Positions 11,380-25,230 are shown, counted from the first letter of the stretch. The stretch: 64,000 nucleotides of DNA from Verrucomicrobiia bacterium (GCA_036268455.1 DATAUD010000026.1:12407-76406), one strand, 5' to 3'. The notes: generated by a model not told the origin, from the sequence alone. Numbers and translations: made by a program.

Positions 11380-11391
11380 GGGTTCTTCGCG

Positions 11392-12237
11392 CTAACTCTG
11401 GCTCTTCGCATCAATTGATTCGGCGACTTTCCTGAATACAGCCTCGTCCATCGCTACGAGGTTTTTGGCTTCCGGGAAACGTCCGTTTTGAACGTCCGCG
11501 GCATATTCCTTGAATGCGGCTATGCGCTCATTCTGCAACCGTTCATATTCCTTCCGAAAATTCCGGTACGCCTTCGCGTGGCGGGGAATTCGTTCATCGT
11601 AGTCCCCCAGGATGTCGTCCGAAAACAGGAATTGCGAGTCGCACCCATTGCCCGATCCCAGGGACATCAAAAACAGCGAAGTTTTTTTGCAAAGATAAGC
11701 CGCCAGGTTATGAGGCGCCAATTCCAATTCCGCCGCGTAGGCGCCCGCATTTTCAAGGCGCTTCATTTGGTCATACAATAACAGCGCTTCGTCGGCAGTC
11801 TTGCCAATCGCCCGAACATTCGTCCATGTCGCATGTCGCGGAACCATCCCCAGATGGCCGACCACAGGGACTCCCTCCAGCGCCATCGCTTCGATCATCC
11901 GAACGCTGGCCGAGCAATACACCGAACTTGCGCCCAATTCCAGCGCTTGGAATGCAATGCGAATTGCCTCCTCCGGCGAAGCCAATCCATGCGGTGTCGC
12001 AGCCGAAATAAAACTCTTTGGGGCCGCCGCCACGAGCAGAGGTAGCCGGGCCTGCGAGACTGGCGAGTCAAAGCTACAACTCATCAAATCAATCCCCGCC
12101 GCTTCCGCCGCTTCCGCCTCCTCCGGCGATTTAACGTGTATATGAGTCAAACATCGCTTCCCTTTGAGCCGCCGCAAATCATAGACGGTATATTTTTTGT
12201 CCAGTTTCCACATTCCGGGACAGTGTATTGCAGGCAT
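11392..12237 (-). CDS. PanB-family protein (3-methyl-2-oxobutanoate hydroxymethyltransferase-like), divergent
   Basis: VVGHLGMVPRH....IGKTADEA, AGAYAAELELAP and LMSLGSGNGCDSQFLFSDDILG are collinear with PanB motifs. The N-terminal GDS region is not canonical. Confidence 0.6.
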   Translation of the reverse strand: MPAIHCPGMWKLDKKYTVYDLRRLKGKRCLTHIHVKSPEEAEAAEAAGIDLMSCSFDSPVSQARLPLLVAAAPKSFISAATPHGLASPEEAIRIAFQALELGASSVYCSASVRMIEAMALEGVPVVGHLGMVPRHATWTNVRAIGKTADEALLLYDQMKRLENAGAYAAELELAPHNLAAYLCKKTSLFLMSLGSGNGCDSQFLFSDDILGDYDERIPRHAKAYRNFRKEYERLQNERIAAFKEYAADVQNGRFPEAKNLVAMDEAVFRKVAESIDAKSQS

Positions 12238-12657
12238 TGCCGCCGCAAGCCGGAAATTGCGCTTATCGTTCCGAGAGATGGGAATGAATAGAAAACGAAT
12301 CTGGAAATCATAAAATCAGGAATTCCTTTTCCTGATTTCCTTGAGTTCCAGACAGAAGTTTTCAGTTCGTAAGCCCCACTTGACGTTCATTGATTGTCAA
12401 CGTGACCGGGTCTTCCGCTTTGCGCCTCTGGGGCTTGGCGGCATCGCGTTAAAAATTCACCAGGTTGATCCCCAGCCTTTTCGGTGTTTCCGGCGGCAGT
12501 CACTCTTCGCCTTTATGGTTATCCTCAACTTCCGCGCACAGCGCAAAGAGCCTCAATGCAGAAAGCTCTTGCGAGTCCCATTATATGGTGGTATATAGTT
12601 TTTCAATGGGACATCCAAGTCACATTAGTCGAAAACAGCACAAAAAGAATGATCCTC

Positions 12658-13336
12658 ATGCAAACATCAGCATCCACCCCTGACACCACCGCCTCCACCC
12701 AGCGCCGCGGCAAAATCGCCCGCCTTCCACGCGAGATCCGCGAACAACTCAACACCCGCCTCGACGACGGCGAGGATGCCGCTCAAATCCTCTCCTGGCT
12801 CAACGCCCTTCCCGCCGTCCAGAAAGCCATCGCCACCCACTTCAACGGCCAGCCCATTTCCCCACAAAACCTCAGCGCCTGGCGCAAGGGCGGATTTCAG
12901 GAATGGCTCTTCCAAACCGATTACCTCGACAGCGCATTCCACATGCGCGAGCACATCCAGGAATTGCAAAAGGAAATCGACGCCGACACGCCCCGGCGAG
13001 TTCTTCCGCTCAATGGCCGACTTCATGGTCAACCATCTGGCCGTCCGTTTTACCGTCTTCATGGGCAGGTGGGACGGTTCTCCCACAGCCGACCATCAAG
13101 CCCTGATGAAAACCGCCATGATCATTTTGAAATTGCAGGCCGCTTGCCTCAAATCCGAACGCGCCGCTCTGGAAATTCCGCAATTGCGCTGGAAGGCCCG
13201 GCTTGAGCAAGAAAAACGCGATGAACTTCTTGCGGCCTACGAAGAACACAAGGAGGAGCAGGCCGAAGAAGTGCTTAAGGAATTCATGGAATCGTACGAA
13301 GCCAAAATGAAAAAAGAGGAAGCCAAAAAAGGGTAA
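12658..13336 (+). pseudogene. frameshifted conserved hypothetical (N-terminal RLPREIREQLNTRL helix-turn-helix-like region, DUF3486-like; helical Lys/Glu-rich C-terminus)
   Basis: Two overlapping ORFs (frames of 12484 and 12776) each look protein-like over only one half. The frames switch at the C4 run 12991-12994. The stop codon TAA 13334-13336 lies inside the IS inverted repeat. Confidence 0.55.
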
Positions 13337-13356
13337 TAATATACTTGTTGCAACAT
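13331..13356. repeat. left terminal inverted repeat GGGTAATAATATACTTGTTGCAACAT
   Basis: It is the exact reverse complement of 16442-16467. Confidence 0.85.
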
Positions 13357-13396
13357 GCGACGGGTGCAGCATAGCGGATGCCAAGCCGCCATTTTT

Positions 13397-13606
13397 TCAC
13401 TGGCGCTTTTTGGCTTCGCGCTTTTTCAGGTTGCTGGCCTGAAACTCAGCCAACTGCCGGTCTGATTCCGCCTTCGTATTCGATAATATCTTTTTGACAG
13501 AATTCTTAAATTCGTCAAACGGAATCAGCGGAACGTCATTGGCAGAGTGATGCTTTCTTCCACTCACAATTAAAAATTTTACAAACCTTGCAACATAAAC
13601 GCGCAA
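13397..13606 (-). CDS. small hypothetical ORF (passenger D), doubtful
   Basis: The ORF has a TTG start and no ATG, and it overlaps the 3' end of passenger C out of frame by 71 nt. The C-terminal ...FDEFKNSVKKILSNTKAESDRQLAEFQASNLKKREAKKRQ looks protein-like. Confidence 0.3.
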   Translation of the reverse strand: MRVYVARFVKFLIVSGRKHHSANDVPLIPFDEFKNSVKKILSNTKAESDRQLAEFQASNLKKREAKKRQ

Positions 13607-14096
13607 GCATCTCTTTCATTGAACATCTTCTCCAAAGAATTTTGTATATCTTGCCGTAATCGTCCGGCTGTTGTCCTTCCAGTGAGTTGGGGGTATTATG
13701 AAAAATATCAATGCCCTTGCCGAGCTTGCTAGTCCAGAGGCCGCAATTCAATTGATCCGAAACGTGGGTAAATTCCCACTGCTGTGTGCCGTAGATTCCA
13801 AAAGCGGCGTATATCGCTACCTTCTTAATGAAGAAATTGAAACTTGTATCTAGGGTATCAGATTGCCTATAACCGCGCCTTTCAAACAAAAAAATGAAGC
13901 TATCTAGCGAGTAATCATCAGGAACGTCACTCGGCCATGTCTCCCATTTATTGATTGGTTTTGGCTCATACCACGCGGTTTGCGTGCGTTCTACAGACCA
14001 TCCGATGCAATTGTATTTATTCGTAGCCTCGCTCGTTTTTTTACCACCGTCAAGCCGAAGCTTTGGAAACAATGCGTTAATGTCCGGGGGGATCAT
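13536..14096 (-). CDS. passenger C: hypothetical protein with papain-like/NlpC-P60-like Cys...His signature
   Basis: KYNCIGWS (Cys30), KVAIYA...EFTHVSDQL (His111) and LWTSKLGKGIDIFH. The ATG at 14096 sits 1 nt after the stop of passenger B. The track start at 14168 would overlap B by 71 nt. Confidence 0.6.
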   Translation of the reverse strand: MIPPDINALFPKLRLDGGKKTSEATNKYNCIGWSVERTQTAWYEPKPINKWETWPSDVPDDYSLDSFIFLFERRGYRQSDTLDTSFNFFIKKVAIYAAFGIYGTQQWEFTHVSDQLNCGLWTSKLGKGIDIFHNTPNSLEGQQPDDYGKIYKILWRRCSMKEMLARLCCKVCKIFNCEWKKASLCQ

Positions 14097-14097
14097 T

Positions 14098-14526
14098 TCA
14101 GGATATATAGCGCTGCCTCTTTCCCCACGCAATCCAAGATGCAACAGCATCGTCAAATGTTTTGGCACACTTTGCCGGGTCCTGACCGCTCAATAGTTTG
14201 AGCGCCTCGAACCAAATATCTGGGCGTTCTCGCAGTTCTTCTAGTATCAGTGGAATAACGTCGCCTTGCGGTTGCTTCGCAAACAACCCGATTAGGCGCT
14301 GGTAAGTCGGGTGTGCATAGCGTCGCATGTTTAACGCATAAGACGCAGTCGTGTCTTGCCAGTCTTTTGCAAGGGTCCGAAAGTCCCTGACCAATGTGCT
14401 TTCGGGATTCGAGATTAACTCTATGTTCTCATTTAAATCGGCGAACTGATACAACACGCGACCGTCTGGACACGGCTCGTAGTGCGGAACCGCAAAATCA
14501 AAATTGATCTCAAAAGCTGTTTGCAT
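14098..14526 (-). CDS. passenger B: small helical hypothetical protein
   Basis: The 142-aa ORF has a perfect AAGGAG Shine-Dalgarno 8 nt upstream of its ATG, inside the end of passenger A. The C-terminal motif is HPTYQRLIGL...VIPLILEELRERPDIWFEALKLLSGQDP...WIAWGK. Confidence 0.65.
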   Translation of the reverse strand: MQTAFEINFDFAVPHYEPCPDGRVLYQFADLNENIELISNPESTLVRDFRTLAKDWQDTTASYALNMRRYAHPTYQRLIGLFAKQPQGDVIPLILEELRERPDIWFEALKLLSGQDPAKCAKTFDDAVASWIAWGKRQRYIS

Positions 14527-14531
14527 AAGTT

Positions 14532-15203
14532 TTACTCCTTGTCTTCAAAAAATCGAACGCCGCTTTTTTGAATATACGATTTCAGTAAAGCGTGCTTCTT
14601 TTCCGCCCTTTCGATAGACTTTTTAAGTTTTTGAAGGTCATCACCATTCATGGCCACGTAGATGTCGTGATGCCTTCCTTCGTGGTGGTAATAGAGATTC
14701 AACGTGTGAATAATCACACCGGCATCAATTGACGTGGCAGACTCGGAAAAAACTGGGCGCATGTCGGAAAGAATGCGGACTCCACAAAAGACCTTGTCTT
14801 GGTCAGACATCACGTTAATCGTTTTCCCGATTAACCCCATACCCCCGCCGACATTCAAAAGTTGTGATAGTCGATCTATAAATACGCTCAGCTTGTCCAT
14901 TGGAAAACCCCTTGGCTCCTCGCTTTCGATTGTCAGCCTTACGTCACTTGTCAGTCCCTGTGCGGTTCTCCCGATGGAACTCATTAACCGATGCAGAGAA
15001 GAAACAGTGCGGACAAGTTGGCGAGTGATCTCAATAGAGACCGAAGGAACTCGCTCGTGAAGAGCGGACGCAAAATTTAAATGCGTTACGGTCGGCCCGA
15101 TTTCCTCAATTCCATTCAACAAATTCTCGAATGACTTGTCATCGAGCAACGCAATAGATTTGTAAACTCGATATTCCGAGGATGGAATTTTAAACTGTGG
15201 CAT
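14532..15203 (-). CDS. passenger A: hypothetical protein, 223 aa
   Basis: A clean ATG ORF 50 nt downstream of the transposase stop with plausible protein composition. I recognise no family. Confidence 0.6.
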   Translation of the reverse strand: MPQFKIPSSEYRVYKSIALLDDKSFENLLNGIEEIGPTVTHLNFASALHERVPSVSIEITRQLVRTVSSLHRLMSSIGRTAQGLTSDVRLTIESEEPRGFPMDKLSVFIDRLSQLLNVGGGMGLIGKTINVMSDQDKVFCGVRILSDMRPVFSESATSIDAGVIIHTLNLYYHHEGRHHDIYVAMNGDDLQKLKKSIERAEKKHALLKSYIQKSGVRFFEDKE

Positions 15204-15253
15204 ATCTAATTGTCCGATCTCTTCTTTCCACGACGTTGCCGATTTTCGTGCAT

Positions 15254-16210
15254 TCAGCTTCCACCGGTGGCTCCAATTAACTGCTTATACGTCATGTGCT
15301 TTCCGGTCATTCCACCCACCGCTTTCACGAATCTCTCACCGTCCACATTGGTTCGATTATTGAACCGAAACGCCTCCTCATCAAGATAACGGAAGAGGTG
15401 AAATGGTTCAACACTCACATGGGTGCCTTTGAAACAACGCTTTAGCAAGCACCAAAAATTTTCAAGCCCGTTCGTGTGAACTGCACCCTTTGCGTAACAC
15501 TCCGCATGGTCAATCGTCCGGTGAATATAATCGCGCTCCAATCCATTATATGACCGCAACGCATCGGTATAAATTTGGGAACCAGCGGCGACGTGCTGGC
15601 GAATTTCACCTTGAACGGTTGGCCGTTTGGCATTCGGGACGTGCTTTAGTTTGACGCGGCTGCCAGTGGCGTGCCGTTCCAAAAGTCCCATAACGATTGC
15701 CTTGCCGACGCCCCCAGTTCCACGACCTGGCTTGCGTCGGTGTTTGGCATTCATTAAGCGGACTCGTCCGCCGATATATGTTTCATCGGCTTCCACCTGC
15801 CCGGACATTTTTTCAAAGGTGCCGTCTTTGAGAGCCAAACGAATGCGGTGCTCCAAAAACCAAGCGGTCTTTTGCGTGATTCCAAGTGCGCGGTGAATCT
15901 CGTATGAACTAATGCCGTTTTTCGCGCTGGACATCAGCCAGAACGCCACGAGCCATTTATCTAGCGACAGATGGCTGTCCTCCATAATCGTGCCAACCTT
16001 GACGGAAAATTGCTCCCGTTTCGGACAATCTTCGCATGTCCAGACGCGACGCTTGGCTGTGAAGGACACATGGACGGAACCGCAACGGGGGCATTTTACA
16101 ACGCCGTCCGGCCAGCGGATATTCTTGACGAATTCAAGCGCAACATCTGGGTTGGAAAAATAAACAATTGCGTCTTGCAACGTCTTAGGAATTTGTTGAT
16201 CTGTGTTCAT
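15254..16210 (-). CDS. IS1595-family transposase (zinc-ribbon + ISXO2-like DDE domain)
   Basis: RWPDGVVKCPRCGS...WTCEDC, SSYEIHRALGITQKTAWFLEHRIR, EADETYIGG, IYTDALRSYNGL and HTNGLENFWCLLKR. I used ATG 16210 (MNTDQQIPKTLQDAIVYF) because the track start at 16336 is TTG. Confidence 0.85.
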   Translation of the reverse strand: MNTDQQIPKTLQDAIVYFSNPDVALEFVKNIRWPDGVVKCPRCGSVHVSFTAKRRVWTCEDCPKREQFSVKVGTIMEDSHLSLDKWLVAFWLMSSAKNGISSYEIHRALGITQKTAWFLEHRIRLALKDGTFEKMSGQVEADETYIGGRVRLMNAKHRRKPGRGTGGVGKAIVMGLLERHATGSRVKLKHVPNAKRPTVQGEIRQHVAAGSQIYTDALRSYNGLERDYIHRTIDHAECYAKGAVHTNGLENFWCLLKRCFKGTHVSVEPFHLFRYLDEEAFRFNNRTNVDGERFVKAVGGMTGKHMTYKQLIGATGGS

Positions 16211-16214
16211 TACC

Positions 16215-16358
16215 TTAGCTGTTCTGGGTCTTTTTCCCTTTTTCTTTCTCCCATCGTGCGAGCGCAGCGGCGCGGGCTTGTGCGCTGGTTCGGGCTTTTG
16301 CTTTGCCTTTTCCGGCTCTACCTCCCAGTCTTCCAAGCTGTTGCGCCGCTTTGTTCAT
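16215..16358 (-). CDS. 47-codon Lys/Ala/Gly-rich small ORF between IRR and transposase
   Basis: Own translation gives MNKAAQQLGRLGGRAGKGKAKARTSAQARAAALARWEKEKGKKTQNS. It stops 4 nt before the transposase ATG and is below the track size cut-off. Confidence 0.35.
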   Translation of the reverse strand: MNKAAQQLGRLGGRAGKGKAKARTSAQARAAALARWEKEKGKKTQNS

Positions 16359-16441
16359 GGTGATAGTATGCACAACCGCTTGCGCATGTGCAACAATTAT
16401 TTTTCATAATATATGTAAGTTGTTGACAGTAAGGATAATTT

Positions 16442-16467
16442 ATGTTGCAACAAGTATATTATTACCC
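16442..16467. repeat. right terminal inverted repeat ATGTTGCAACAAGTATATTATTACCC
   Basis: It is the exact reverse complement of 13331-13356. Confidence 0.85.
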
Positions 16468-16660
16468 TGCTAAAGGTTCGCGCAAAAAACCCGGTTCCAG
16501 CACAAAACCTACCGAACCGACTGTCATAGAGAATGTTAAGTTTGATGAGGGCCATCAAATCTCCCCTTCGTCCGAAGCAGGAGTCGAAAACAGCTTGCCA
16601 GCAGGCCCAGCTTGTGAAAAATTTCACTAAGTCGGTTGAGCAGGTTCGAGAATCAAGTTT

Positions 16661-17749
16661 ATGACACATGTGAAATTGCATATTCCGGGGCCGGTCGAGG
16701 TCAGCGCCAAGACGTTTAAGGCGTTCTGTTCGCCAATGATCGGCCATCGCGGCCAGGGTTTCAAAGACCTTTACGCCAAAATTCAGCCGCAGTTGCAACA
16801 GTTGCTGTCCACCAAACAATTTGTCTATCTGAGCACGTCTTCGGCGTGGGGTGTGATGGAAGGGGCGGTGCGCAATCTGGTCCAAAAACGTGTTCTTAAT
16901 TGCATGTGCGGCGCGTTCTCGGACAAATGGCTCGATGTTTCCAAGCGTTGCGGTAAACAGGCGGAGGCGCTTCAGGTGCCGTGGGGTTCGCCTATTCTTC
17001 CGGGACAGATTGAAGCCAAATTGGCCACCGGCACCTTTGACGCCCTCACCATCATTCATAATGAGACTTCAACAGGAGTGATGAGTCCCATTTACGAAAT
17101 CGCCGCGCTTAAGAAAAAGTTTCCCGATGTGATGTTTATCGTCGATGCCGTCAGCTCGATGTCGGCGACCAAGCTGGAATTTGACGTCCTTGGAATCGAT
17201 GTGCTGCTGGCCGGAACACAAAAAGCGTTCGCAATGCCGCCGGGTCTGGCGGTATTTGTCTGCTCGCCGGCGGCGCTGGCAAGAGCAGCGGCGGCGACGG
17301 ATCGCGGGTATTATTTTGACTTTGTCGAGTTCCAGAAGAATGCCGAGCAAAGCATGACGCCGAGCACGCCGAGCATCGGGCATGTTTACGCGCTGGCTTC
17401 CAAGCTGGAGGACTTCTTTAGCGAGGGCCTTGAGGCTCGTTACGCCCGGCATACAAAACTGGCCGGCTTGACGCGGGCATGGGCGGCGAAACACGGCTTC
17501 ACGCTCTATCCGGAGCCTGGCTATGAATCGGTGACGCTGACGTGCGTCAATAACGGCGCGAAGCCGGGGGGACGTGTTATCGACGCGGCGAAGTTGCAGA
17601 AGGCGGTGAAAGACCAGGGATTTTTGATTGACGGAGGTTACGGGAAAATTAAAGGGACGACCTTTCGCATTTCCAACATGGGTGATGAAACCGAGGAAAC
17701 GATGGGGCAGCTTTACGCCGCGCTGGATTCCGGGATGAAACAGTTTTAA
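16661..17749 (+). CDS. class V aminotransferase (serine-pyruvate/alanine-glyoxylate aminotransferase-like)
   Basis: IPGPVEV...MIGHRGQGF, IIHNETSTGV, DAVSS and GTQKAFAMPPGLA (PLP lysine context). Confidence 0.85.
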   Translation: MTHVKLHIPGPVEVSAKTFKAFCSPMIGHRGQGFKDLYAKIQPQLQQLLSTKQFVYLSTSSAWGVMEGAVRNLVQKRVLNCMCGAFSDKWLDVSKRCGKQAEALQVPWGSPILPGQIEAKLATGTFDALTIIHNETSTGVMSPIYEIAALKKKFPDVMFIVDAVSSMSATKLEFDVLGIDVLLAGTQKAFAMPPGLAVFVCSPAALARAAAATDRGYYFDFVEFQKNAEQSMTPSTPSIGHVYALASKLEDFFSEGLEARYARHTKLAGLTRAWAAKHGFTLYPEPGYESVTLTCVNNGAKPGGRVIDAAKLQKAVKDQGFLIDGGYGKIKGTTFRISNMGDETEETMGQLYAALDSGMKQF

Positions 17750-17750
17750 G

Positions 17751-18263
17751 CTACGGCGAGATAGGCAGGCGTTCGTCGTTTTTGTCTTCGCTGATCAACA
17801 TGCCTTGATCTTTGTAGATCTTGAGCATGAAATGCGTCGCCGTGGAGAGAACACCATGGATTGTGGCCAGCTTCTCGGAGACGAATGTTGCGACTTCGCG
17901 CAGATTGGCGCCTTCCACCACAACCTGCAAATCGTAACCGCCGGACATCAGATAGCACGAACGGACCTCGGAGTATTTGGCGATGCGCTCGGCCAAACGA
18001 TCAAAACCGCCGCCGCGTTCGGGAGTAATCTTCACTTCGATGACCGCTCGAACGGAGTCGGCGCCGACCTTCTCTTCGTTCAAAACGGCGCGATAGCCGA
18101 GGATTACCTGGTCGTTTTCGTAAGATTTGATCTTCGCGGCAATTTGCGCTTCGGAGAGGTTGAGCATCATGGCCAACTGGTCGGGTTTCAACGCCGCATT
18201 TTCCCGCAAAAGTTTTAGTAACGGATCCATGACCGCATTGTTATCACTTCCCGCGTCTGACAA
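17751..18263 (-). CDS. Lrp/AsnC-family transcriptional regulator
   Basis: An HTH N-terminus is followed by an RAM-type domain (AVIEVKITPERG...VRSCYLMSGGYDLQVVVE). The start may instead be the internal MDPLLK (18230). Confidence 0.8.
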   Translation of the reverse strand: MSDAGSDNNAVMDPLLKLLRENAALKPDQLAMMLNLSEAQIAAKIKSYENDQVILGYRAVLNEEKVGADSVRAVIEVKITPERGGGFDRLAERIAKYSEVRSCYLMSGGYDLQVVVEGANLREVATFVSEKLATIHGVLSTATHFMLKIYKDQGMLISEDKNDERLPISP

Positions 18264-18301
18264 AAGAAGAATAACCGTCCGGTTTTCCGGTTTGGCTGGC
18301 G

Positions 18302-20200
18302 CTACTTTATCATTCCTTTTTTCCGCAACATCGCTTCCATCGCTTTGTCCATCAGCAATTCAGCCAGGGGCTTGGTGGCTTCGTCCAATGCGGCCAGCGC
18401 GGCTTTCAGACGGGCGGGGTCGGGAGCGGCGGAGGTGAGTTGATCCGTGACGGACTGCATCTCTTTCTCAACCTGACTTTTATAGGCCGGATCGAGGTCG
18501 GCGGCGCAATCGGCTAAACCCTTGCGGGCGGCGTCTAATGTTTCTTCGGCGCGAAGTTTGGCTTCGATCCATTGGCGCGCGCGCAAATCTTCGAATGCGT
18601 TTTCAACGGACTCTTCAACCATTTTTTGCACCTCGGCGTCGGCGACATCCACGGCGGATTTCATTTCGACTATTTTTTGCCGGCCAGTTTTGGTGTCACG
18701 GGCCAAAACGCTGAGGATGCCGTTGGCGTCGATCTCGAATTGGACGCCGACGCGGGGAAGACCCTTGGGGGCGGACTCAAAATCGATGGTGAAACGGCCA
18801 AGACTCCAGTTGTCCCTGGCCCGCTCGCGCTCGCCTTGGAGGACGTGTATCAGCATCTCGCGCTGGCGATCGACGGCTGTGGTGAACATTTCGCCGGCCT
18901 TGATGGGAATGGTCGAGTTGCGCGGGATAATGACATTCATCAGGCCGCCAAAGGTTTCGATACCGAGGGACAACGGCGTCACATCAAGCAAGAGAACGTT
19001 TTTGAAACCGCCGGAAAGAATCTCCGCCTGGATCGCCGCGCCGAGGGCAACGGCTTCGTCCGGATTTTGCGAGATGTTGAGTTGCGGGCCGGAGGGCTTG
19101 TGGTATTCGGAACCCAGCCGCAGATCGCCGCGCGTCTCCTCGAATTCCGCGCAGCCGAAAACCTCGGCAACCATCCTCCGCACCAACGGCATGCGCGTCT
19201 GGCCGCCGACAAGAATGACCTGGTCGAGATCGCGCGCCTCCAGCTTCGCATCGGCGAGGGAGCGCAGGCAATGCTGGCGGGTGCGCAGGAGAATGTCGTG
19301 AGTGAGGTCTTCCAATTCGGAGCGCCGCAGCTCGTAGTGAAAATGAAAATCCGGCGTGATGAAAGGCAACGCGATTTCGACGGATTCCTCGGTGGAGAGA
19401 CGGATTTTTGCCTGCTCGGCCGCTTCGCGTATCCGCGCCAGCAATGGCAAATCCCCCGAGGGATCCGGGCCGCCGGCGGACTTGATTTTGTCAATTATAG
19501 CTTCTATGAGACGGGCGTCCAAATCATCACCGCCGAGGCGCGTGTTGCCGTTGGTGGAAAGCACTTGGAAAACACCTTCGTTCAATTCGAGGATCGAAAG
19601 ATCGAAAGTTCCGCCCCCAAGGTCATAGACCGCGATTTTGGATTTCTCCCGAAGCTTGTCCAAACCATACGCCAGCGCGGCGGCCGTCGGCTCATTAACG
19701 ATTCGCTCCACCGTGAAGCCGGCCAATTCGCCGGCGGCCTTGGTGGCGTTGCGCTGCGCATCGTTGAAGTAGGCGGGCACGGTGATCACGGCGCGAGTAA
19801 TATTTTCGCCGAGAGAAGCTTCGGCGTCGCGCTTCAATTTTTTAAGAATTTCCGCGGAAATTTCCTCCGGCGTGTACAAACGCCCGCGAACATCCACGCG
19901 GACAGGTCCCCCGCCCTCGCCCTTGATGGGATAAGTCACGACCATTTCCTCCTGCGCAATCTCAATCCCGCGCCGGCCCATGAAACGTTTGATCGAATAC
20001 ACGGTGGCGGCGGGTTGAAGGACTCGGACGCGATTGGCCCCACGCCCGACGATGAGCCGCGCATTGTCCGCCGGGAAATGGACGACCGATGGGGTCAGGC
20101 GCTGGCCTTCGGAATCTGCGATGACGTACGGGATGCCCGAATCCACCGCCGCCACCAATGAGTTGGTCGTGCCAAGGTCGATGCCAACGATCCTGCTCAC
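18302..20200 (-). CDS. Hsp70-family chaperone (DnaK/HscA-like paralog)
   Basis: IVGIDLGTTNS, DLGGGTFD, VILVGGQTRMP and NPDEAVALGAA. Confidence 0.9.
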   Translation of the reverse strand: MSRIVGIDLGTTNSLVAAVDSGIPYVIADSEGQRLTPSVVHFPADNARLIVGRGANRVRVLQPAATVYSIKRFMGRRGIEIAQEEMVVTYPIKGEGGGPVRVDVRGRLYTPEEISAEILKKLKRDAEASLGENITRAVITVPAYFNDAQRNATKAAGELAGFTVERIVNEPTAAALAYGLDKLREKSKIAVYDLGGGTFDLSILELNEGVFQVLSTNGNTRLGGDDLDARLIEAIIDKIKSAGGPDPSGDLPLLARIREAAEQAKIRLSTEESVEIALPFITPDFHFHYELRRSELEDLTHDILLRTRQHCLRSLADAKLEARDLDQVILVGGQTRMPLVRRMVAEVFGCAEFEETRGDLRLGSEYHKPSGPQLNISQNPDEAVALGAAIQAEILSGGFKNVLLLDVTPLSLGIETFGGLMNVIIPRNSTIPIKAGEMFTTAVDRQREMLIHVLQGERERARDNWSLGRFTIDFESAPKGLPRVGVQFEIDANGILSVLARDTKTGRQKIVEMKSAVDVADAEVQKMVEESVENAFEDLRARQWIEAKLRAEETLDAARKGLADCAADLDPAYKSQVEKEMQSVTDQLTSAAPDPARLKAALAALDEATKPLAELLMDKAMEAMLRKKGMIK

Positions 20201-23209: not shown

Positions 23210-23211
23210 TT

Positions 23212-23312
23212 CAGTTGTGCGGGGAGCCGGGCTTGGTGGCCGAAGGCTGAGAGTTTTGCGGACGCAAATGACCCGTTGAACCTGCTCCAGGTAATGCTGG
23301 CGAAGGGAAAAC
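23212..23312 (+). promoter_or_regulatory. TPP (THI-box) riboswitch
   Basis: GGGGAGCC...GGCTGAGA...ACCCGTTGAACCTGCTCCAGGTAATGCTGGCGAAGGGA matches the THI element core, about 65 nt upstream of thiC. Confidence 0.85.
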
Positions 23313-23364
23313 GCTTTCATCGCGCCGCACCTGTATCGCCTTTCCCCCAAAGGTCCGTCCGTGA

Positions 23365-25230
<1,866 letters not shown>

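Follow-up and report, generated by a model that had tools for sequence, protein, structure and literature searches.

Passenger-carrying members of the IS1595 family of insertion sequences have been known since 2009, the year in which Siguier, Gagnevin and Chandler reportedly described transporter insertion sequences with passenger genes in groups of the ISNwi1+ and ISNha5 type. Here we analysed a window of 64,000 nucleotides from a Verrucomicrobiia bacterium (GCA_036268455.1, DATAUD010000026.1:12407-76406; the window is this whole stretch, and positions are counted from its first letter) and found that positions 13332-16466 are very probably a single 3,135-bp passenger-carrying insertion sequence (IS) of this family, which resides in the chromosome of an uncultured member of the Verrucomicrobiae and moves as a unit. 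The features of the family and the concept of the transporter IS (tIS) are described in PMC8101967 and PMC11891212, and the class to which an earlier reading of this DNA (hereafter, the original prediction) had assigned the element is thereby an established one. Like the IS1595 tIS described there, the element combines a zinc-ribbon and DDE_Tnp_IS1595 transposase with inverted repeats (IRs) starting with GG, 8-bp target-site duplications (TSDs) in its clade and a few kilobases of genes unrelated to transposition. Structurally, it has everything that characterizes the IS1595 family and a tIS, and a TSD of its own copy is the one feature missing. Unlike in the usual tIS, the clade has a conserved second small open reading frame (ORF) and transports defence-type systems and a COMMD-like operon instead of regulators or resistance genes. 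Mobile elements of this kind are nothing unusual, but this one is exceptionally well documented, by an empty site, by exactly known ends and by a clade of 40 elements together with their target duplications.

The value of the locus lies in its cargo, in which a COMMD-like protein is part of a conserved operon with two uncharacterized partners, mobilized by two IS lineages. Prokaryotic COMMD-like proteins assemble into rings of 8-10 subunits, and their function has been called obscure (Liu et al., Nat Commun 2026, PMC13392464). In Myxococcota, their genes cluster with VgrG, PAAR and DUF2169, that is, with components resembling a type VI secretion system (T6SS) (PMC13392464), whereas the COMMD-like gene of the window stands with genes for ORF142 and a DUF7689 protein on IS1595 elements. 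The string 'transpos' is absent from PMC13392464, and in the published literature we found no description of an operon of COMMD-like, ORF142 and DUF7689 genes or of a connection between such an operon and IS1595 elements, no paper mentioning DUF7689 and none linking the COMM domain with anti-phage function. If our reading of the cargo is correct, it would for the first time place prokaryotic COMMD-like proteins, which are relatives of eukaryotic Commander subunits, in a functional context.

Ends and content of the element

The sequence GGGTAATAATATACTTGTTGCAACAT at 13331-13356 returns at 16442-16467 as its exact reverse complement, and the two arms match over 27 nt in all (13330-13356 and 16442-16468). 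With up to three mismatches allowed, this pattern occurred at only two sites in the window, namely the two arms, and not once across 100 dinucleotide-preserving shuffles. Because related elements and an empty site (both described below) fix the ends at GGTAAT and ATTACC, the outer G/C and A/T of the 27-nt repeat are flanking bases that are complementary by chance, and the element proper, GGTAAT...ATTACC, spans 13332-16466 (3,135 bp) with IRs that agree at 25 of 25 positions. The transposase-proximal terminal inverted repeat (IRL) lies at 16442-16466 on the minus strand, where it reads GGTAATAATATACTTGTTGCAACAT; beyond the match to the other arm, its end is fixed by the empty site on contig L100 and by 32 relatives whose ends directly adjoin TSDs. 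The distal terminal inverted repeat (IRR), at 13332-13356 on the plus strand, is supported by the arm match, the relatives' ends and the empty site. The ends GGTAATAAT in the window and GGTAATTAT in some relatives resemble the ISNwi1-group consensus 'ggnnatTAT', and the element is a candidate member of this subgroup, as the original prediction had suggested. Separately, the IR motif TTGTTGCA(A)CAT recurs about 45 bp towards the interior.

Within the two arms, every ORF of appreciable size lies on the minus strand. The transposase gene (15254-16210, minus strand) encodes an IS1595-family DDE transposase of 318 aa with an N-terminal zinc ribbon, which matches PF12762 (expectation value (E) 4.5e-42, profile positions 2-153 of 153), PF12760 (E 1.4e-12) and NCBIfam NF033547 (E 8.4e-56). 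The catalytic positions, namely D in EADETY, D in YTDALRSY and both E and K/R in NGLENFWCLLKR, are invariant across 79 of 79 full-length relatives and intact in the window protein. Among annotated plasmid-borne transposases, the closest was 37% identical and named just 'IS1595 family transposase'. Between the transposase gene and IRR lie four passenger ORFs on the transposase strand, a tight operon with spacers of 50, 5 and 1 nt and a final overlap of 32 nt. The fraction of guanine and cytosine is 0.473 in the element (0.457 in the cargo, 0.509 in the transposase gene) versus 0.551 and 0.570 in the 10-kb flanks; against these surroundings at 0.55-0.57, the composition of the element is foreign. 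A scan for promoters and terminators within the element gave counts not above those of shuffled sequence and was uninformative. Exact-protein look-ups with the transposase, the COMMD-like protein and the aminotransferase encoded nearby led to nothing beyond the source contig and a single short, identical contig that represents the same insertion.

The original prediction had placed perfect 26-bp IRs around 13331-16467 and had described the enclosed element as about 3.1 kb long including unrelated genes, richer in AT than its surroundings and equipped with an intact IS1595-type transposase carrying the motifs above. The repeats are indeed perfect and exceed what shuffled sequence yields, the transposase has its profile matches and catalytic residues, the interior differs in composition as stated, and at 3,135 bp the size agrees, with cargo lying inside the TSD-bounded unit in relatives. 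What changed are the boundaries, which are 13332 and 16466, and the length of the IR, which is 25 bp.

An empty site at the same locus

Contig L100 shares the gene order of the window (esterase, panB, target gene, aminotransferase, AsnC, HSP70) and aligns to window positions 11387-13331 and 16467-20091 with 91-95% identity. It lacks transposase, IRs and passengers, with exactly 13332-16466 missing as one block; transposase and cargo therefore arrived together. Where the original prediction had pointed to related loci that might carry the passengers without IRs or transposase, L100 has none of the three. In place of the element, it holds 48 bp between the flanks, CCAAAAAAAAGCC...CAATCAAGG, which code for AKKKPSQSDAQSSPIKA and are absent from the window.

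The insertion lies in the lysine-rich 3' end of an already frameshifted gene. Its 5' part (12484-13331, plus strand) carries the frameshift near 12990-13010, and its 3' part (16467-16630, plus strand) continues from 16469 in the frame ...AKGSRKKPGS.... Both parts are supported by homologues: P0173, from a metagenome-assembled genome (MAG) of the Verrucomicrobiae, is intact, 253 aa long and 93% identical, and P0174, encoded on L100, is the uninterrupted C-terminal product, reading ...KKEEAKK-AKKKPSQSDAQSSPIKA-AKGSRKKPGS... and thus including the extra 48 bp of L100. The target gene (12484-13336) is split over two frames, with the same frameshift in L100 and P0179; as the frameshift is common to L100, it is older than the insertion. 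It could be explained by decay into a pseudogene, by programmed frameshifting or by a homopolymer error common to these sequences. Judged by eye, the N-terminus of the target gene may be DUF3486-like.

An independent contig of the same insertion, assembled at k=31 from SRR11836410 (L001, corresponding to window 13302-16765), begins 30 nt left of the IS boundary. A de Bruijn graph would be expected to branch at this point if the sample contained both the occupied and the empty allele, which is suggestive only.

A clade of related elements

Scanning metagenome contigs with the transposase gave 80 loci at 52-81% identity. Left and right ends could be paired in 48 of these, representing 40 distinct insertions of 1.2-4.4 kb. 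All 40 distinct relatives, with transposases 52-72% identical, have GGTAATAATATACTTGAC ends, and in 32 of them perfect 8-bp direct repeats abut GGTAAT...ATTACC and enclose passenger DNA. The real ends therefore include the cargo; copies with ends that leave it outside, an outcome the original prediction had also considered, are not what these 32 TSDs delimit. The duplications, for instance CAATTTTG, CTTTATAG and CAGAAAAG, follow a rough consensus C/T-T-N-W-T-T-A-G. Only one element of the 40 is close to transposase-only size (1,215 bp, with poor ends and no TSD), the others carrying about 0.8-3.4 kb of extra DNA. We envisage that the transposase recognizes both 25-bp IRs and would move everything between them into AT-rich 8-bp targets by DDE-mediated transposition.

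Some insertion sites deserve separate mention. Seven independent insertions (L039, L044, L045, L055/L056, L057, L064, L067) lie, in either orientation, within the repeat ...GTCATCCTGAGCTTGTCGA(A/G)GGATCA..., and six of the seven have the TSD TTGTCGAA, TTGTCGAG or TTCGACAA; the flanks of L039 are inverted copies of this dispersed repeat and show no direct duplication. Insertions apparently favour this repeat as a hot spot. At L075 (4208-6680), two IS1595 elements stand end to end with only the palindromic target CTAATTAG between them, representing either a tandem array or a nested insertion.

The passenger genes

The passenger gene next to the transposase (14532-15203, minus strand) encodes a prokaryotic COMMD-like protein of 223 aa, in which a COMM domain follows a helical domain at the N-terminus, as indicated by profile search, structure prediction and Foldseek. 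The family profile matches PDB entry 9q6a ('COMMD-like protein MBK5214510') at E 1.1e-35. The AlphaFold2 (AF2) model has a predicted local distance difference test score (pLDDT) of 92.9 and comprises seven helices, three strands and one helix, in this order; Foldseek aligned it to 9q6a with template modelling (TM) scores of 0.76-0.79 and to human COMMD chains at E 1e-4 to 1e-6. The protein thus shares with those in 9q6a and 9q6c the two-domain fold, in which a helical N-terminal domain precedes a COMM domain of three strands and a helix, but is just 20-21% identical to the solved COMMD-like protein. A word-indexed search with this ORF (ORF223) returned one close relative, a full HMMER search 3,842 representative clusters, nearly all of about 220 aa. 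The family has no Pfam model, the window protein had no match in PADLOC, NCBIfam or PHROGs, a scan of viral contigs with the COMMD subfamily alignment yielded no locus, and plasmids contained no COMMD-like relative.

The second passenger gene, ORF142 (14098-14526, minus strand), encodes a protein whose C-terminal part, about 100 aa long, is a conserved helical domain; the gene stands directly upstream of the DUF7689 gene in every locus examined. The alignment of this domain (A4) matched nothing in Pfam or PDB, and ORF142 likewise had no match in PADLOC, NCBIfam or PHROGs. The original prediction had seen no recognizable resistance or regulatory gene set in the cargo; ORF142 belongs to no known family, but the COMMD-like protein and the DUF7689 protein could be recognized.

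The third passenger gene (13536-14096, minus strand) encodes the DUF7689 protein, 186 aa long and matching PF24738 at E 1.2e-24, which is possibly a Cys-His(-Asp) papain-like hydrolase. C30, H111, D130 and H133 are invariant in 18 homologues, and in the AF2 model (pLDDT 88.3) C30 occupies the N-terminal end of a helix, with both H111 and D130 on strands. This arrangement, an invariant Cys at a helix N-terminus followed by His and Asp on strands, is that of papain-like and NlpC/P60 cysteine hydrolases; unlike for those enzymes, fold matches are insignificant (E 0.16-0.35 or worse, TM about 0.3), the top ones, all of them papain-like, being phytochelatin synthase, Josephin-type enzymes and a phage tail assembly protein, and the DUF7689 profile had no match among PDB sequences. 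As no structural neighbour is significant, the label 'peptidase' derives solely from the invariant Cys, His and Asp, which make a thiol hydrolase plausible. With a narrower alignment, DUF7689 was found at one locus among 185,579 species-representative genomes, in a Verrucomicrobiia MAG, and at none in viral contigs. The module is thus rare among sequenced genomes.

Plasmids contained one distant DUF7689 match. On the Parabacteroides distasonis plasmid NZ_OY725823.1 (L102, 173976-176024), a DUF7689-like domain of 26% identity lies inside a 682-aa hypothetical protein, and the next gene encodes a protein with a sorting domain of the type IX secretion system (T9SS). This hints that some members of the DUF7689 family are secreted enzymes.

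The last passenger gene, ORF56 (13397-13567, minus strand), starts with GTG, overlaps the end of the DUF7689 gene and adjoins IRR. It encodes a small, conserved, basic protein of 56 aa, with homologues in 14 distinct loci, including sibling ISs without DUF7689, and without a family match in Pfam, PADLOC, NCBIfam or PHROGs. Differences among the homologues amount to 92, 58 and 178 at the first, second and third codon positions, respectively; with the third changing two to three times more than the first or second, ORF56 is a real coding gene under purifying selection.

Recurrence of the ORF142-DUF7689 module

ORF142 and DUF7689 genes stand next to each other, in this order, in 16 distinct loci, with a variable gene upstream that encodes a COMMD-like protein, an unrelated protein of about 135 aa termed c6 or a restriction-modification-like enzyme. 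The COMMD-like partner occurs in the window, L004-L011, L042, L059 and L093/L094; two further contigs, L025 and L032, have a COMMD-like gene after the transposase, but stop before the ORF142-DUF7689 region. The c6 partner occurs in L013, L018, L023, L039, L095-L097 and L098, and a c6 gene likewise comes after the transposase in L030 (together with ORF142) and L050, where the contigs stop before DUF7689. A Type IIG/I restriction-modification-like enzyme is encoded directly upstream in L015/L017 and L019; in L019 the ORF142 domain is fused to the enzyme as its C-terminus, and a frame change divides this domain in L015/L017. The c6 profile matched nothing in PDB, and the idea that c6 is a bare COMM domain was ruled out by an hhalign probability of 0.5% against COMMD-like proteins.

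The module is also carried by a second IS1595 lineage, with a transposase about 40% identical and CGGGAYT ends (CGGGAYTRTGCACTT). Here, COMMD, ORF142 and DUF7689 genes are convergent with the transposase gene, that is, in the opposite orientation, and 8-bp TSDs surround the whole unit (AAAAAAAT in L005, AATTAAAA in L093). Furthermore, the DUF7689 protein of the window is 65% identical to the second-lineage copy (transposase about 40%) versus 30% to the copy in L042 (transposase 60%). As cargo similarity is incongruent with transposase similarity, modules have been exchanged between elements. Two occurrences of the module have no transposase, one in an integrase island (L098) and one beside SNF2 and DUF1156 genes (L099). 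In L004/L005, an IS21 element (rve and IstB; about 4618-7156 in L005) has inserted into the IS1595 transposase gene, with cargo and outer TSD intact.

Cargo of sibling elements and a possible role in conflict

Several sibling ISs carry genes of known or candidate defence systems in the same cargo position. They include a complete PD-Lambda-5 system (A at E 6.5e-109, B at E 3e-122), a complete PDC-M38 system (AAA_15/21 ATPase at E 2.8e-82, DUF3226 at E 1.6e-53) and a Rosmer-like set of an RmrA-like IrrE/HTH protein with DUF4411, as well as Type IIG/I restriction-modification-like enzymes, an NYN nuclease and DUF3800 proteins (L024, L033/L029, L052, L015/L017/L019, L036, L040/L043/L058). IS-sized elements can shuttle small defence systems, and this IS clade gives the impression of being such a small vehicle of defence genes.

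Relying mainly on these siblings, which bear PD-Lambda-5, PDC-M38, Rosmer-like and Type IIG systems on small mobile elements, we read the cargo of the window, by guilt by association, as a conflict module for phage defence or abortive infection, a reading that we regard as a real possibility, though not as probable. Unlike those systems, the cargo of the window itself matches no PADLOC model, and its suggested defence role is drawn from the siblings. The domain of ORF142 might tether the variable partner, be it a COMMD-like ring, c6 or a restriction-modification enzyme, to the DUF7689 protein, which would act as the effector through its putative thiol hydrolase activity; in the window element, the variable partner would be the putatively ring-forming COMMD-like protein. 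The more specific proposal, that a COMMD-like ring, the ORF142 adaptor and a DUF7689 thiol hydrolase (with or without ORF56) make up an undescribed anti-phage or conflict system on IS1595 transporter elements, is tentative and somewhat doubtful. More broadly, the IS clade may be a dedicated vehicle for small defence systems in Verrucomicrobiota and in other soil and peat bacteria.

Alternative explanations

That the two IRs do not bound one element, and that a minimal IS merely lies beside resident genes with the distal repeat as a solo end or a chance occurrence, is hardly credible. The window copy does lack a target duplication, as this explanation would have it; yet the empty site on L100 is devoid of the whole of 13332-16466, which effectively refutes it, barring a chimeric L100 assembly. 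Nor is the repeat expected by chance, TSDs enclose the cargo in 32 relatives, and no IR-like site is present inside the element near the transposase stop. Slightly more room, but still very little, is left for the passengers being accessory transposition factors, such as regulators or target selectors, rather than cargo. For ORF56 alone this would be plausible, as ORF56-type proteins are kept in many clade members whatever their other cargo, and ORF56 may serve the IS. Most close relatives, however, do without COMMD-like, ORF142 and DUF7689 genes and yet have perfect TSDs, the module also occurs without any transposase, and cargo and transposase similarity do not track each other. As to the function of the cargo, an addiction module resembling a toxin-antitoxin (TA) pair, which would stabilize the IS through a DUF7689 toxin neutralized by ORF142 and/or the COMMD-like ring, is unlikely, even if it agrees with the small, tightly coupled genes, the constant adjacency of ORF142 and DUF7689, the presence of the module on selfish elements of two IS lineages and the TA-like sets of siblings (RmrA-like with DUF4411, and an AAA_21 protein of 'AbiEii-type'). 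Three or four genes with a variable upstream partner are more complex than a classic TA pair and match no known TA family; at the same time, addiction overlaps with defence, and sequence alone cannot separate the two. Still less likely is a set for inter-bacterial competition, with DUF7689 as a secreted effector, ORF142 as immunity protein or adaptor and the COMMD-like protein as a secretion-linked chaperone. The T6SS-like neighbours of the COMMD-like genes in Myxococcota (PMC13392464) and the T9SS sorting-domain protein beside the distant DUF7689-like domain in Parabacteroides would fit such a role, but none of the 16 loci has secretion-system genes, PAAR, Rhs or signal features beside the module, the proposed immunity gene precedes the effector gene, and the neighbours are of the defence type, not secretion genes.

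Several observations also weigh against the readings that we favour, namely a single mobile unit and a conflict function of its cargo. Concerning the former, the flanks of the window copy, CAAAAAAG on the left and CTGCTAAA on the right, contain no 8-bp target duplication. The missing duplication is probably due to the loss of about 56 bp beside one end (the 48 bp retained by L100 and the 8-bp duplication copy): the simplest reading is an ordinary insertion into the target gene with an 8-bp duplication, probably followed by this deletion, in an order of events that we infer. A target duplication, moreover, is a trace left by insertion and does not belong to the structure of the element. A degraded TSD, GCCAAAAA/GCTAAAGG (5 of 8 positions), had been a candidate and was dropped when comparison with relatives and with the empty site settled where the element ends and revealed the 48-bp gap. 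Further, the window contains no second copy of transposase or cargo, and an all-against-all comparison of the 48 elements found no near-identical copy at a different site. Identical element pairs share their flanks and therefore represent the same insertion in different samples; with no near-identical copy found elsewhere, recent activity of the window copy is unproven. As many loci were found via the transposase, the apparent link between IS and cargo is biased. Concerning function, no protein of the cargo matched any of 5,027 PADLOC models below E 0.04 or had a match in PHROGs or NCBIfam, and Foldseek searches with the DUF7689 model against PDB and BFVD gave nothing significant.

Additional features

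Upstream of the transposase gene, the window element has a stretch of about 200 bp between IRL and the transposase that relatives lack: from the first base of IRL to the transposase start there are 256 bp in the window, compared with 47-82 bp in most relatives and 859 bp in L046-L049. According to the ORF list, this stretch contains a small basic ORF (16215-16358, minus strand; MNKAAQQLGRLGGRAGKGKAKARTSAQARAAALARW...) of 47 aa from ATG, or 52 aa from a GTG at 16373, with its stop 4 nt ahead of the transposase ATG. It had no homologue in any of the 80 related loci and no family was found for it. Outside the element, the window contains an ordinary thiamine pyrophosphate (TPP) riboswitch (Rfam RF00059, 57 bits) at 23210-23326, upstream of a thiC-like ORF at 23377-25230.

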